From: Escherichia coli
Lineage (GTDB): Bacteria; Pseudomonadota; Gammaproteobacteria; Enterobacterales; Enterobacteriaceae
Strand: one strand, 5' to 3'
DNA: 64,000 bases
NCBI RefSeq assembly: GCF_050920415.1
Contig: NZ_CP169309.1
The notes below the pieces were generated by a model. The model was not told the DNA's origin. It ran no database searches and worked only from the letters and a program-made list of their open reading frames with translations. This document shows positions 9,904 to 33,033 of this stretch, in pieces; the first letter of the stretch is position 1, and every line of letters starts with the position of its first letter. Made by a program: the position numbers and the translations under genes.

Positions 9904-9923
9904 TCAACACCGTGATGAAAACG

Positions 9924-9951
9924 AAGGCCGGAGCATGCTCCGGCCTTTTTT
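9924..9951. terminator. Intrinsic terminator hairpin downstream of valS (bidirectional with yjgN)
   Basis: aaggccggagcatgctccggcctt perfect stem followed by T-run. Confidence 0.8.
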
Positions 9952-28436: not shown

Positions 28437-30575
28437 ATGACACCGCATGTGATGAAACGAGACGGCTGCAAAGTGCCGTTTAAATCAGAGCGCATCAAAG
28501 AAGCGATTCTGCGTGCAGCTAAAGCAGCGGAAGTCGATGATGCAGATTATTGCGCCACTGTTGCCGCGGTTGTCAGCGAGCAGATGCAGGGCCGCAGCCA
28601 GGTGGATATCAACGAGATCCAGACCGCCGTTGAAAACCAGCTGATGTCGGGTCCATACAAACAACTGGCTCGTGCTTACATCGAGTACCGTCACGATCGC
28701 GACATTGAACGTGAAAAACGCGGTCGCCTGAATCAGGAGATCCGTGGTCTGGTCGAGCAGACCAACGCCTCGTTGCTCAACGAAAACGCCAACAAAGACA
28801 GCAAGGTGATTCCAACCCAGCGCGACCTGCTGGCCGGGATTGTGGCTAAACACTATGCACGTCAGCACCTGCTGCCGCGTGACGTGGTGCAGGCGCATGA
28901 GCGTGGCGATATTCACTATCACGATCTCGATTACTCGCCGTTCTTCCCGATGTTCAACTGCATGTTGATCGACCTGAAAGGTATGCTGACCCAGGGCTTT
29001 AAGATGGGGAACGCCGAGATTGAACCACCGAAGTCGATCTCTACGGCAACCGCGGTAACTGCGCAGATTATTGCTCAGGTCGCCAGTCATATTTATGGCG
29101 GCACCACCATTAACCGTATCGATGAAGTGCTGGCACCGTTTGTCACCGCCAGCTACAACAAACACCGCAAGACCGCAGAAGAGTGGAATATCCCGGACGC
29201 CGAAGGTTACGCTAACTCTCGTACCATCAAAGAGTGCTACGATGCCTTCCAGTCGCTGGAGTACGAAGTAAACACCCTGCACACCGCCAACGGTCAAACA
29301 CCGTTTGTGACCTTTGGTTTTGGTCTGGGCACCAGCTGGGAGTCTCGCCTGATTCAGGAGTCTATCCTGCGTAACCGTATCGCGGGCCTCGGTAAAAACC
29401 GCAAAACTGCGGTGTTCCCGAAACTGGTGTTTGCGATTCGCGATGGCCTGAACCATAAAAAAGGCGATCCGAACTACGACATCAAACAGCTGGCGCTGGA
29501 GTGCGCAAGCAAGCGCATGTATCCGGATATCCTGAACTACGATCAGGTAGTGAAAGTCACCGGTTCGTTTAAAACCCCGATGGGCTGCCGTAGCTTCCTC
29601 GGCGTGTGGGAAAATGAAAACGGCGAACAGATCCACGATGGTCGTAACAACCTCGGCGTGATCAGCCTGAACCTGCCGCGCATTGCTCTGGAAGCGAAAG
29701 GCGATGAAGCCACCTTCTGGAAGCTGCTGGATGAACGTCTGGTGCTGGCACGTAAGGCGCTGATGACCCGTATCGCTCGTCTCGAAGGCGTTAAAGCGCG
29801 CGTGGCCCCGATCCTCTATATGGAAGGTGCTTGTGGCGTTCGTCTGAATGCTGACGACGACGTTTCTGAAATCTTCAAAAACGGTCGTGCGTCTATTTCG
29901 CTGGGTTACATCGGCATCCACGAAACCATTAACGCGCTGTTTGGCGGCGAGCATGTGTATGACAACGAGCAGCTGCGCGCGAAAGGTATCGCCATTGTTG
30001 AACGTCTGCGTCAGGCGGTGGATCAGTGGAAAGAAGAAACGGGTTACGGTTTTAGCCTTTACAGCACGCCAAGTGAAAACCTGTGCGACCGCTTCTGCCG
30101 TCTCGATACCGCAGAGTTTGGCGTGGTGCCGGGCGTGACTGATAAAGGTTACTACACCAACAGTTTCCACCTCGATGTGGAGAAGAAGGTGAACCCGTAC
30201 GACAAGATCGACTTTGAAGCGCCTTACCCGCCGCTGGCGAACGGTGGCTTCATTTGCTACGGCGAATATCCAAACATTCAGCACAACCTGAAGGCGCTGG
30301 AAGATGTCTGGGATTACAGCTATCAGCATGTACCGTATTACGGCACCAATACGCCGATTGATGAGTGTTACGAGTGTGGTTTTACCGGTGAGTTTGAGTG
30401 CACCAGTAAAGGCTTCACCTGCCCGAAATGCGGTAACCATGACGCCTCCCGTGTGTCGGTGACTCGCCGCGTGTGCGGATATTTAGGTAGCCCGGATGCG
30501 CGTCCGTTTAACGCTGGTAAGCAGGAAGAAGTTAAGCGCCGCGTTAAACATTTGGGAAATGGGCAGATCGGTTAA
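28437..30575 (+). CDS. nrdD: Anaerobic ribonucleoside-triphosphate reductase
   Basis: 712-aa ORF with C-terminal glycyl-radical region and Zn-binding cysteines (CYECGFTGEFECTSKGFTCPKCGNHD). Confidence 0.97.
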   Translation: MTPHVMKRDGCKVPFKSERIKEAILRAAKAAEVDDADYCATVAAVVSEQMQGRSQVDINEIQTAVENQLMSGPYKQLARAYIEYRHDRDIEREKRGRLNQEIRGLVEQTNASLLNENANKDSKVIPTQRDLLAGIVAKHYARQHLLPRDVVQAHERGDIHYHDLDYSPFFPMFNCMLIDLKGMLTQGFKMGNAEIEPPKSISTATAVTAQIIAQVASHIYGGTTINRIDEVLAPFVTASYNKHRKTAEEWNIPDAEGYANSRTIKECYDAFQSLEYEVNTLHTANGQTPFVTFGFGLGTSWESRLIQESILRNRIAGLGKNRKTAVFPKLVFAIRDGLNHKKGDPNYDIKQLALECASKRMYPDILNYDQVVKVTGSFKTPMGCRSFLGVWENENGEQIHDGRNNLGVISLNLPRIALEAKGDEATFWKLLDERLVLARKALMTRIARLEGVKARVAPILYMEGACGVRLNADDDVSEIFKNGRASISLGYIGIHETINALFGGEHVYDNEQLRAKGIAIVERLRQAVDQWKEETGYGFSLYSTPSENLCDRFCRLDTAEFGVVPGVTDKGYYTNSFHLDVEKKVNPYDKIDFEAPYPPLANGGFICYGEYPNIQHNLKALEDVWDYSYQHVPYYGTNTPIDECYECGFTGEFECTSKGFTCPKCGNHDASRVSVTRRVCGYLGSPDARPFNAGKQEEVKRRVKHLGNGQIG

Positions 30576-30597
30576 TCTTCACTCTGCGCTAAGCAAA

Positions 30598-30690
<93 letters not shown>

Positions 30691-30732
30691 CCTGATACCG
30701 CCTACACGCGGACTGATAAGCCAGGCGAAATA

Positions 30733-31197
30733 ATGAATTATCATCAGTACTATCCTGTCGACATCGTCAACGGTCCCGGCACTCGCTGCACCCTGTTTGT
30801 CTCCGGGTGTGTTCATGAATGCCCCGGTTGCTATAACAAAAGCACCTGGCGGGTAAATTCCGGTCAGCCATTTACCAAAGCAATGGAAGACCAGATCATT
30901 AACGATCTGAACGACACCCGCATCAAACGCCAGGGTATTTCCCTCTCCGGCGGCGATCCGCTGCATCCGCAAAACGTGCCGGATATTCTGAAACTGGTAC
31001 AACGCATCCGCGCCGAATGTCCGGGTAAAGACATCTGGGTGTGGACAGGCTATAAACTCGACGAACTCAACGCTGCGCAAATGCAGGTTGTTGATTTGAT
31101 TAACGTGCTGGTCGACGGCAAATTTATGCAGGATCTAAAAGACCCTTCCCTGATCTGGCGCGGCAGCAGCAATCAGGTGGTGCATCATTTGCGATGA
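30733..31197 (+). CDS. nrdG: Anaerobic ribonucleotide reductase activating protein (radical SAM)
   Basis: 154-aa ORF from ATG at 30733 (MNYHQYYPVDIVNGPGTRCTLFVSGCVHECPGCYN) with CxxxCxxC cluster motif. Confidence 0.95.
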   Translation: MNYHQYYPVDIVNGPGTRCTLFVSGCVHECPGCYNKSTWRVNSGQPFTKAMEDQIINDLNDTRIKRQGISLSGGDPLHPQNVPDILKLVQRIRAECPGKDIWVWTGYKLDELNAAQMQVVDLINVLVDGKFMQDLKDPSLIWRGSSNQVVHHLR

Positions 31198-31201
31198 TAA
31201 G

Positions 31202-31233
31202 TTCCCTGTTACCTGAGTGCAGGCAACAGGGAA
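31202..31233. terminator. Bidirectional terminator hairpin between nrdG and cybC
   Basis: ttccctgtt acctgagtgcaggc aacagggaa inverted repeat. Confidence 0.6.
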
Positions 31234-31241
31234 ATAAGGAA

Positions 31242-31628
<387 letters not shown>

Positions 31629-31680
31629 TGCTCACTTCCTTTTTCTTATTAAGATTTGGCGCGGCAGGTCGCGCCTTTTT

Positions 31681-33033
31681 TTACTGCCCGGCGATTTTCA
31701 TCTCCGGCAACAGCACAGAACCACACTGTATATTGCTGCGTGTTTCAATATCGTTACCGACGGTGACAATATTGCGCCACATATCTTTTAAATTACCTGC
31801 GATGGTGATTTCGCTAACCGGATACTGAATTTCGCCATTCTCTACCCAGAAGCCCGCAGCACCACGGGAATAATCACCGGTAATGGCACTCACGCCCTGG
31901 CCCATCAGCTCCGTCACCACCAGCCCGGTGCCCATCTCTTTGAGCATTTGTTCGAAGCTTAGCCCTTGCCCGGCAATCCGCCAGTTGTGAATACCGCCCG
32001 CATGTCCGGTGCTTTTCAGCCCCAGTTTCCGCGCCGAATAGCTGGTCAGCAGCCACTGAGTCAGGATACCATCTTTGACGATATCGCGGCGCTCGGTGCG
32101 CACACCTTCGCTGTCGAATGGTGTAGATGCCAGTCCTTTCAGCAGATGCGGATGCTCTTCAATGGTCAGCCAATCCGGCAGAATTTGTTTACCCAGCGAA
32201 TCCAGCAGGAAGGTGGATTTACGGTAAACCGATCCACCCGCTATCGCCCCCACCAGATGCCCAAAAAGTCCGGTTGCCACTTCATTGGCAAAAATTACCG
32301 GCGCTTTCATGGTGGAAAGTTTACGCGGTGACAGGCGCGATAAAGTACGACGAGCACAATCGGCCCCGACCCACTCTGGCGTCTGCAGATCGCTCATCGC
32401 GCGACCAATGGTGTAGGCGTAATCACGCTCCATATCGCCATTTTCTTCGGCAATTACGCAGCTTGAGAGTGAATGACGCGTTGAGCAATAACCCTGCAAC
32501 ATGCCGTGGCTGTTGCCAAAAACTTTTACGCCGTAGTGGCTGTTAAAACTGCCACCTTCGGTATTGGTAATACGCTTGTCCGCCTGTAATGCTGCCTGTT
32601 CTGCGCGAGCCGCCAGTTCAATAGCTTCATCCGGGGAAACTTCCGCAGGGTGAAACAAGTCGAGATCCGGCGCGTCAAAGGCCAGCAGCTCTTTGTCTGC
32701 CACGCCGGCACAGGGATCTGGCGAGGTATAACGGGCAATATCCAGCGCTGCCTGTACGGTGCGGGCAATGGCCTGCGGACTTAAATCGGTAGACGATGCG
32801 CTGCCTTTGCGGTTCTGGTGATAAACAGTGATCCCCAGCGCGCCATCGCTATTGAATTCGACATTCTCCACTTCGCCATATCGCGTGCTAACGCTAATGC
32901 CGGTGGTCTTGCTGACGGCAACTTCCGCACCGTCCGATTTGCCTGAGGCCAACTCCAGCGCAGTGGAAACTGCTTCTTCCAGAATCTTGCGCTGCGCTTC
33001 AACTTGAGAGATTACTTTCATTGCAAGTGCCAT
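31681..33033 (-). CDS. pmbA: Metalloprotease PmbA (TldE)
   Basis: 450-aa [34 protein letters not shown]. Confidence 0.95.

Follow-up and report, generated by a model that had tools for sequence, protein, structure and literature searches.

A conserved stem-loop between pmbA and cybC with the sequence of a plus-strand intrinsic terminator in some Escherichia coli

The window, i.e. the whole 64,000-nucleotide stretch that was analyzed, is DNA of an Escherichia coli other than K-12 and contains nrdD and nrdG on the plus strand, cybC and pmbA (tldE) on the minus strand, yjgA on the plus strand and mpl on the minus strand, in this order. The gene annotation was taken from NZ_CP169399.1, the closest complete genome (99.9% identical over 1 kb). 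The features around the boundary of cybC and pmbA are as follows.

28437-30575, plus strand: nrdD
30733-31197, plus strand: nrdG, which closes the nrdDG operon and is the nearest upstream plus-strand transcription unit; 461 nt from its stop to the stem
31202-31233, no strand assigned: 14-bp hairpin at the convergent nrdG/cybC junction, without a U-tract either way
31242-31628, minus strand: cybC (cytochrome b562), as annotated in NZ_CP169399.1
31561-31580, plus strand: competitor segment, complementary to 31652-31672 (duplex of -21.3 kcal/mol)
31629-31657, minus strand: cybC leader of 29 nt, from the stem to the cybC ATG, with the Shine-Dalgarno sequence AAGGAAG at ~31635-31641
31658-31675, no strand assigned: GC hairpin GGCGCG-GCAGGT-CGCGCC with a 6-bp stem, read directly from the sequence; orthologues carry compensatory changes
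31676-31682, plus strand: T7 run, the U-tract of the predicted plus-strand terminator; on the minus strand, the A-run after the pmbA stop
31681-31683, minus strand: pmbA (tldE) stop codon TAA, overlapping the last two T's, with the stem 5 nt further on in the pmbA sense
31681-33033, minus strand: pmbA/tldE coding sequence of 450 aa, from the open reading frame and the NZ_CP169399.1 annotation

The first-pass annotation had described the element as a canonical plus-strand hairpin with U7, which abuts the pmbA stop codon, is antisense to both neighbors and has no U-tract on the pmbA strand. Direct reading of the sequence agrees with this description: the hairpin and T7 are present (score d = 30.2, see below), TAA at 31681-31683 overlaps the last two T's, both cybC and pmbA lie on the minus strand according to the open reading frames and the annotation, and the minus-strand sequence 3' of the stem is AAAUCUUAAUAAG, not a U-tract (d = -50). 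The span given at that time, 31640-31682, has the correct end, as T7 ends at 31682 and is directly followed by A at 31683 on the plus strand, but it begins 18 nt before the stem, a harmless difference. In the plus-strand RNA the loop is GCAGGU, which a G·U pair can reduce to a CAGG tetraloop; the loop of the pmbA-sense RNA is ACCUGC. The cybC leader carries a motif, AATAATAAAAAAGGAAGTGAGCAATG, that is conserved across genera. As this leader comprises only 29 nt including the Shine-Dalgarno sequence, a separate cybC promoter would not fit between the stem and the gene. In the window, codon 3 of cybC is changed from AAA to TAA (31620-31622).

The built-in terminator scan finds the site (7 pairs, 6 of them GC, and a loop of 4), and its overall yield in the window is at the level of chance, 7 sites vs. 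6.7 expected. Since this makes it uninformative as a significance test, we used a scored scan instead, in which a d'Aubenton-Carafa-type score, which takes into account the free energy of the stem per nucleotide and a weighted T-tail, was calculated for all perfect hairpins on both strands of the 64 kb. The plus-strand site has d = 30.2 with nT = 4.85 and ranks second among the only four sites of the window that have d ≥ 10. Among 60 dinucleotide-shuffled versions of the window, none contained a site with d ≥ 30, and the average number of sites with d ≥ 10 was 0.28. The remaining three of these four sites are:

9923-9948: site after valS
18293-18312: pyrBI leader attenuator, just upstream of pyrB-pyrI
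59188-59164: site after cycA

All three are conventional, and hence high scores in this window mark real terminators; the site at 31658-31682 is the only one of the four where no co-oriented gene ends. The free energy of the hairpin is -11 to -12.5 kcal/mol (-12.2 for the plus-strand RNA and -12.5 for the minus-strand RNA). The plus strand thus has the sequence features of an intrinsic terminator, with six GC pairs and a G·U pair in the stem, a short loop and an abutting U7, and the pmbA strand lacks the U-tract 3' of the stem. We also considered a repeat element of the REP/BIME or ERIC type and rejected it, as the motif is present as a single copy in the window and at one place per genome; an Rfam search of the region gave no match at the hairpin, and REP-like naRNA4 matches were found elsewhere only. 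The feature is real, statistically solid and of a familiar kind, with an orientation that is unusual and specific to certain strains.

Any plus-strand RNA polymerase at this site would have to come from the left, and the only evident source is read-through from nrdDG. The nrdG stop at 31197 is separated from the cybC stop by a 44-nt spacer containing the 14-bp hairpin at 31202-31233, which has a free energy of -20.6 kcal/mol on the plus strand and -23.3 kcal/mol on the minus strand and the sequence 3' of it is AUAAGGAAUU on the plus strand and CUUAUCAUCG on the minus strand. From the nrdG stop to the stem (31198-31657), the scored scan found no plus-strand site with d ≥ -10, and the hairpin at 31202-31233 is absent from that list. 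Thus nrdDG lacks a canonical intrinsic terminator. Judging from the sequence, read-through of nrdDG antisense to cybC is plausible. The operon is little expressed in air and is induced by FNR under anaerobic conditions.

These observations raise the possibility of a dedicated antisense insulator: the plus-strand terminator would have been selected to end FNR-induced nrdDG read-through at the pmbA stop, with pmbA protected and cybC silenced in an excludon-like manner. The idea that read-through from nrdDG is blocked at this point had been put forward in the first-pass annotation, and it is physically plausible given the sequence. It is in line with the score of 30.2, reached in 0 of the 60 shuffles, with the position of the site as the first terminator downstream of nrdG on the plus strand, and with the predicted 3' end, which falls exactly on the boundary of cybC and pmbA. 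On the other hand, the plus strand has a C-rich stretch at 31278-31375 (C/G up to 1.8), whose composition could let Rho act on the untranslated plus-strand RNA and stop the read-through earlier.

It had also been proposed that the terminator marks the 3' end of an unannotated plus-strand transcript. In this case it would belong to an independent cis-antisense small RNA that starts inside cybC and base-pairs with the ribosome-binding site and the start codon of cybC. Indeed, the translation-initiation region of cybC would find its full complement in a plus-strand RNA with this 3' end, and a hairpin with a U-tail is the usual 3' module of small RNAs. However, the promoter scan of the plus strand at 31198-31657, which includes cybC, yielded no sigma-70-like site at the scan threshold, Rfam had no matching family, and the terminator is weakened in most E. 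coli (see below). Our literature search found pmbA and cybC named together nowhere, and the literature retrieved for cybC with "antisense" dealt with other matters, namely a K-12-specific sigma-54 site and RyhB targeting in Salmonella. A small RNA of this kind is therefore very unlikely, and the proposed transcript found no support.

To see how the hairpin behaves in longer transcripts, we considered its pairing probability in context. In the pmbA-sense RNA, this probability is 0.97-1.0 in every context up to 300 nt on each side. In the plus-strand RNA, it is ∼0.99 with up to 80 nt of upstream RNA and, at equilibrium, falls to ∼0 with 100 nt or more, when the segment 31561-31580 is included; the three genuine terminators of the window keep 0.92-1.0 in the same test. 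The competing duplex of 31561-31580 with 31652-31672 contains two G·U pairs, which on the other strand become C·A. This competitor helix counts against a plus-strand terminator maintained by selection. Still, most of the segment 31561-31580 is predicted to be already paired by the time the terminator is made, and thus co-transcriptional folding may still favor the terminator. We treat the predicted equilibrium competitor as a caveat to the plus-strand terminator, not as its refutation.

To place the hairpin in a wider context, we retrieved 80 loci encoding the PmbA C-terminus from different species. In 34 of them, pmbA is followed by cybC, in genera ranging from Escherichia to Yersinia, Serratia, and Erwinia. 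An orthologous stem-loop is found just 3' of the pmbA stop in at least nine enterobacterial genera; its carriers include Escherichia, "Enterobacter" sp. Ag1, Cedecea, Mangrovibacter, Kluyvera, Pluralibacter, Pseudocitrobacter, and others. The stem differs among them by paired substitutions, the variants being GGCGCG/CGCGCC, GGCGCA/TGCGCC, GGGTGCG/CGCACCC, GGGCGCC/GGCGCCC, and CGGACGCG/CGCGTCTG, and the loop is similar in all orthologues (in the pmbA sense, a/tCCTGC). As the loop orientation is identical in all genera, a small inversion that flipped a terminator cassette is excluded as the origin of the E. coli arrangement.

In the alignment of 13 sequences, five of the eight stem pairs have changed on both sides, that is, in a compensatory manner. 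The covariation score is 0.346, compared to the mean of 0.182 in shuffled alignments, and none of 500 shuffles reached the observed value; controls with slid partners gave 0.04-0.13. The pairing is better in the pmbA-sense RNA (87.5% of cells paired) than in the antisense RNA (81.7%), and all six G·U cells are valid in the sense RNA only, with none in the antisense, a strand preference based on some four independent G·U events and on folding at equilibrium. Hence the orthologous position, the compensatory changes and the sense-favoring G·U pairs expected of a conserved structured RNA in the pmbA-cybC mRNA are all present.

The same data bear on the suggestion that the palindrome is a DNA operator for a dimeric regulator of cybC, for which a perfect 6-N6-6 dyad lies at the appropriate place, 29 nt upstream of the cybC ATG. 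In the orthologues, however, the two arms change together, as in GGCGCA/TGCGCC, GGGTGCG/CGCACCC or CGGACGCG/CGCGTCTG, and G·U pairs occur. This points to RNA pairing rather than to a fixed protein recognition sequence and makes an operator highly improbable.

In several genera, the T-tract lies on the pmbA side, and the sense score is above zero in nine loci (L007, L018, L023, L029, L031, L040, L044, L045, and L049); in Pluralibacter, for example, the sequence is GGGCGCC-aactgc-GGCGCC-TTTTTTAT. In these genera, the hairpin is therefore an ordinary terminator of pmbA. The A-run between the pmbA stop and the stem, which forms the plus-strand U-tract, was found among the 80 loci in Escherichia only. 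The sequence from the stop to the stem is TAAaaaaa in the window, TAAaaaa(a)CT in most E. coli, and TAAacaaaCT in E. albertii. A convergent nrdG within 2.5 kb of cybC is likewise restricted, among these loci, to Escherichia and Pseudescherichia. The coincidence of the two speaks for a selected insulator, and the A-run being found in the genus where nrdDG converges closely on cybC means that the plus-strand function could be selected. Pseudescherichia, on the other hand, has the convergent nrdG but not the hairpin, and neither Citrobacter nor Enterobacter cloacae has a hairpin between pmbA and cybC.

The absence of the hairpin from these three taxa would also agree with a neutral relic, that is, a decayed pmbA terminator that persists by inertia and is used by neither RNA, the T-run being a chance homopolymer. 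Against this stand the compensatory changes in five of the eight pairs and the covariation score that no shuffle reached, which argue that the pairing is maintained, as well as the combined score of hairpin and T7, also never equaled in the shuffles. We regard a relic without function as unlikely, even though some of the variation described next would fit it.

Within E. coli, the allele of the window is rare: 21 of the 5234 matching genomes are identical to it over 31656-31735. The sampled alleles fall into two classes, with and without an ERIC-like element. At least 1538 of 5426 genomes (28%), SK1144 among them, are ERIC-less. The sampled ERIC-less alleles have the structure TTGGCGCG-gcaggt-CGCGCCAG followed by T6 or T7; there, the additional AG pairs with the upstream TT, so that the T-run still abuts the stem, now of 8 bp. 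The AG-bearing ERIC-less alleles have d = 21-29, and the window allele, from which the AG has been lost, has d = 30. That the score is held by a 2-bp stem extension again agrees with selection on the plus-strand terminator.

The other class, comprising at least 57% of the E. coli genomes, carries an ERIC-like element of ∼130 bp between the stem and cybC; K-12 and Nissle are among the sampled carriers, and E. albertii has the insertion too. In most sampled ERIC alleles (K-12, Nissle, 2014C-3061, and E. albertii), one stem base is changed, which leaves a G·U pair in the sense RNA and creates an A·C mismatch in the RNA of the plus strand; on that strand, these alleles score d = -51 to -56. In one ERIC allele, L003, the stem is intact but is followed by a spacer, and the plus-strand d is -7. 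Finally, in strain JNE141411 a deletion has taken out the hairpin together with the pmbA stop. Taken together, the allele spectrum and the scores indicate that a minority of E. coli has a strong plus-strand terminator and that the majority can dispense with it while keeping the sense pairing.

This is difficult to reconcile with a dedicated insulator, whose plus-strand version is degraded in the majority class and in E. albertii while the sense pairing persists, and which JNE141411 has lost altogether. The latter deletion, as a natural removal of the hairpin in E. coli, is what one would expect of a relic.

The published 3'-end maps for K-12 can be compared with these predictions. In the curated Term-seq data for MG1655 grown aerobically in LB or M63 (Adams et al., 2021; PMC7815308), there is no 3' end on either strand between 4457270 and 4463010. 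The same study lists Rho-dependent regions at 4460186 (plus strand) and 4462398 (minus strand). In MG1655, position 4460186 on the plus strand is antisense to nrdG and lies further downstream of the hairpin in the pmbA/cybC sense. It follows that in K-12 the transcription in the pmbA/cybC sense passes both hairpins, and the 3'-end data fit a hairpin that does not terminate pmbA. The missing pmbA-sense 3' end at the hairpin is subject to the expression threshold of Term-seq and to the different allele of K-12, and could be explained by low expression. For the plus-strand terminator, K-12 says little, as its ERIC allele is a weakened one and its nrdDG operon is poorly expressed under aerobic conditions. 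Accordingly, the lack of a plus-strand 3' end is a weak test of an insulator, and the lack of a 3' end on either strand would suit a relic as well. The supplements of SMRT-Cappable-seq (PMC6131387) and TERMITe (PMC12207403) have no entry for these genes or coordinates, and a search for literature on nrdDG and terminators returned, among the matches listed, nothing apparently relevant to this locus.

We therefore favor, with moderate confidence, a reading in which the hairpin is a conserved stem-loop of the pmbA message, a former pmbA terminator that has become intercistronic between pmbA and cybC and lets sense transcription pass, its plus-strand termination being secondary. In the ancestor, the hairpin would have been the intrinsic terminator of pmbA itself, later turned into a stem-loop between the two genes. 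In the direction from pmbA to cybC, it would fold robustly and yet not terminate: the sense U-tract is gone, and the stem, which starts 5 nt after the stop codon, is within reach of the terminating ribosome, which is likely to hinder its folding, so that RNA polymerase should read on into cybC. The stem-loop itself may then contribute to the structure or the stability of the pmbA-cybC mRNA. A role in protecting the 3' end of pmbA is a candidate only, as the K-12 Term-seq data contain no sense 3' end.

On the opposite strand, the same stem followed by U6-7 would act as a canonical intrinsic terminator in the ERIC-less alleles, that of the window included. A plus-strand polymerase that arrives here, most obviously by read-through from nrdDG, would mostly be released at ∼31681-31684, at the pmbA stop codon. 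We infer that this activity is secondary and not essential. The insulator idea is thus mechanistically reasonable, but it probably describes a secondary property and not the reason why the stem is conserved. Two facts decide against it as the best reading: the hairpin is a conserved stem-loop of the pmbA transcript, serving as the terminator of pmbA in other genera, and the plus-strand U-tract occurs in Escherichia only and, in most E. coli, is compromised. We consider a dedicated insulator possible but rather doubtful.

A bolder version of the favored history is a switch of polarity, in which the U-tract on the pmbA side was lost, fusing pmbA and cybC into a single transcription unit, and the opposite one was gained in Escherichia, where nrdDG had become convergent with cybC, producing a one-way valve that lets pmbA-to-cybC transcription through and silences cybC. 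If it were true, the anaerobic nrdDG transcript would end after running antisense over all of cybC, and cytochrome b562 would be subject to oxygen-dependent, excludon-like silencing with pmbA shielded. To us this seems improbable.

In itself, the locus is of little importance, being one intergenic stem-loop of a familiar type. If the plus-strand activity is real under anaerobiosis, the nrdDG operon would have its 3' end here, and cybC would by implication be under antisense control. More generally, when a hairpin and its T-run point in the "wrong" direction, they can be a relic of the neighbor's terminator and need not be evidence of a hidden antisense transcript. Moreover, the strength of a terminator at one locus can differ sharply among E. 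coli strains, here by an ERIC insertion and a 2-bp indel. This means that Term-seq maps of K-12 are not transferable to other isolates.

Compared to a canonical Rho-independent terminator, the plus-strand element has the same GC-rich stem of 6-7 bp, the short loop and the directly adjoining U7, and its score is comparable to those of the valS and cycA terminators and the pyrBI attenuator of the window. Unlike such terminators, it has no co-oriented gene end, its stem is inherited from the 3' hairpin of a gene on the opposite strand, an upstream segment competes for the stem at equilibrium, and no 3' end has been mapped to it.

In the pmbA sense, the element is similar to the stem-loops without U-tracts that mark and protect the 3' ends of Rho-terminated mRNAs (Dar and Sorek, 2018; PMC6061677): it is a stable stem-loop just after the gene, it has no U's, and in K-12 Rho termination occurs further downstream. 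It differs in that no steady-state 3' end is mapped at the stem in K-12 and in that cybC starts 29 nt downstream in the ERIC-less strains. It may also be compared with the ribosome-repressed terminators, where a stop codon placed 5 bp before the terminator reduced the efficiency from ∼90% to below 10% (Li et al., 2015; PMC4824070). The distance of 5 nt between the pmbA stop and the stem matches the construct with less than 10% efficiency, but here the sense U-tract is missing as well, and so ribosome repression is not needed to explain the read-through.

Finally, bidirectional terminators have been described between convergent genes by SEnd-seq (Ju et al., 2019, as reported in bioRxiv 10.1101/2022.10.23.513370). 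As far as that account goes, the pmbA hairpin resembles them in being a single symmetric hairpin that can fold on both strands and faces the transcription of a convergent operon. By contrast, its flanking genes, pmbA and cybC, are co-directional, both lying on the minus strand, and its U-tract is on one side only, so that it is predicted to work one way. By the same account, the hairpin at 31202-31233 between nrdG and cybC seems to be closer to the bidirectional class than the pmbA hairpin is.

The pmbA-cybC spacer of E. coli looks like a hotspot of ERIC insertion adjoining a GC stem. Directly after the orthologue of the hairpin at 31658-31675, E. coli genomes carry an ERIC/IRU-like element of ∼130 bp in at least 57% of cases, and similar elements were found in the same spacer of other genera, where they apparently result from independent events. 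The comparison loci around the pmbA 3' end that carry such an element are as follows.

E. coli: L002 (K-12 MG1655), L085 and L086
E. albertii: L009
Cedecea: L015
RIT691: L017

In E. coli JNE141411 (L088, 380-410), a natural deletion extends from the ERIC interior to the pmbA 3' end, with its endpoints at a CCCGGC microhomology. Both the hairpin and the pmbA stop codon are gone, and PmbA is longer by five codons.

In the window, compared to NZ_CP169399.1, which is 99.9% identical, codon 3 of cybC has changed from AAA to TAA (31620-31622, base 31622). Therefore, barring a sequencing error at this codon, the strain from which the window comes probably has no cytochrome b562. In K-12, cybC has been inactivated another way, by loss of the start codon in a deletion of ∼27 bp. 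The junction of the K-12-specific deletion, AAGGAACTATTCTTGCA (∼4459490 in MG1655), is at the position of IS52, a sigma-54 ChIP site (Bonocora et al., 2015; PMC4591121), whose sequence is not present in the window. Given this coincidence, IS52 appears to be an artefact of the deletion.

The cybC leader, AATAATAAAAAAGGAAGTGAGCAATG (31629-31652), is near-invariant in several genera (loci L004, L006, L019, L020, L022, and L026-L028), which exceeds the need of a Shine-Dalgarno sequence alone. As RyhB is reported to target cybC in Salmonella (PMC4228915), the conserved leader may serve as the target of a small RNA, or else as a promoter -10 element. On the plus-strand RNA, the segment antisense to the signal-peptide codons of cybC (31561-31580) is complementary to the terminator region (31652-31672), with 14 base pairs and -21.3 kcal/mol. 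The geometry of this predicted pairing is antiterminator-like, and the complementarity itself may be due to chance.

The highest terminator score in the window (d = 42.3, d'Aubenton-Carafa type) belongs to the classical pyrBI leader attenuator at 18293-18312, 30 nt upstream of pyrB-pyrI. Other elements are found in spacers closer to pmbA.

30562-30714: REP-like sequence (Rfam naRNA4) in the nrdD-nrdG spacer
31202-31233: 14-bp hairpin where nrdG and cybC converge, within the 44 nt that separate their stop codons
33727-33804: REP-like sequence (Rfam naRNA4) in the yjgA-mpl spacer, 86 bits, above the gathering threshold

The K-12 Term-seq 3' end 4457270 (+) falls in the spacer between yjgA and mpl. 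At the nrdG/cybC junction, Rho-dependent termination is seen in K-12 data only beyond the hairpin position, antisense to nrdG. This hairpin, missing a U-tract on both sides, resembles the hairpin-only bidirectional terminators of convergent E. coli genes.
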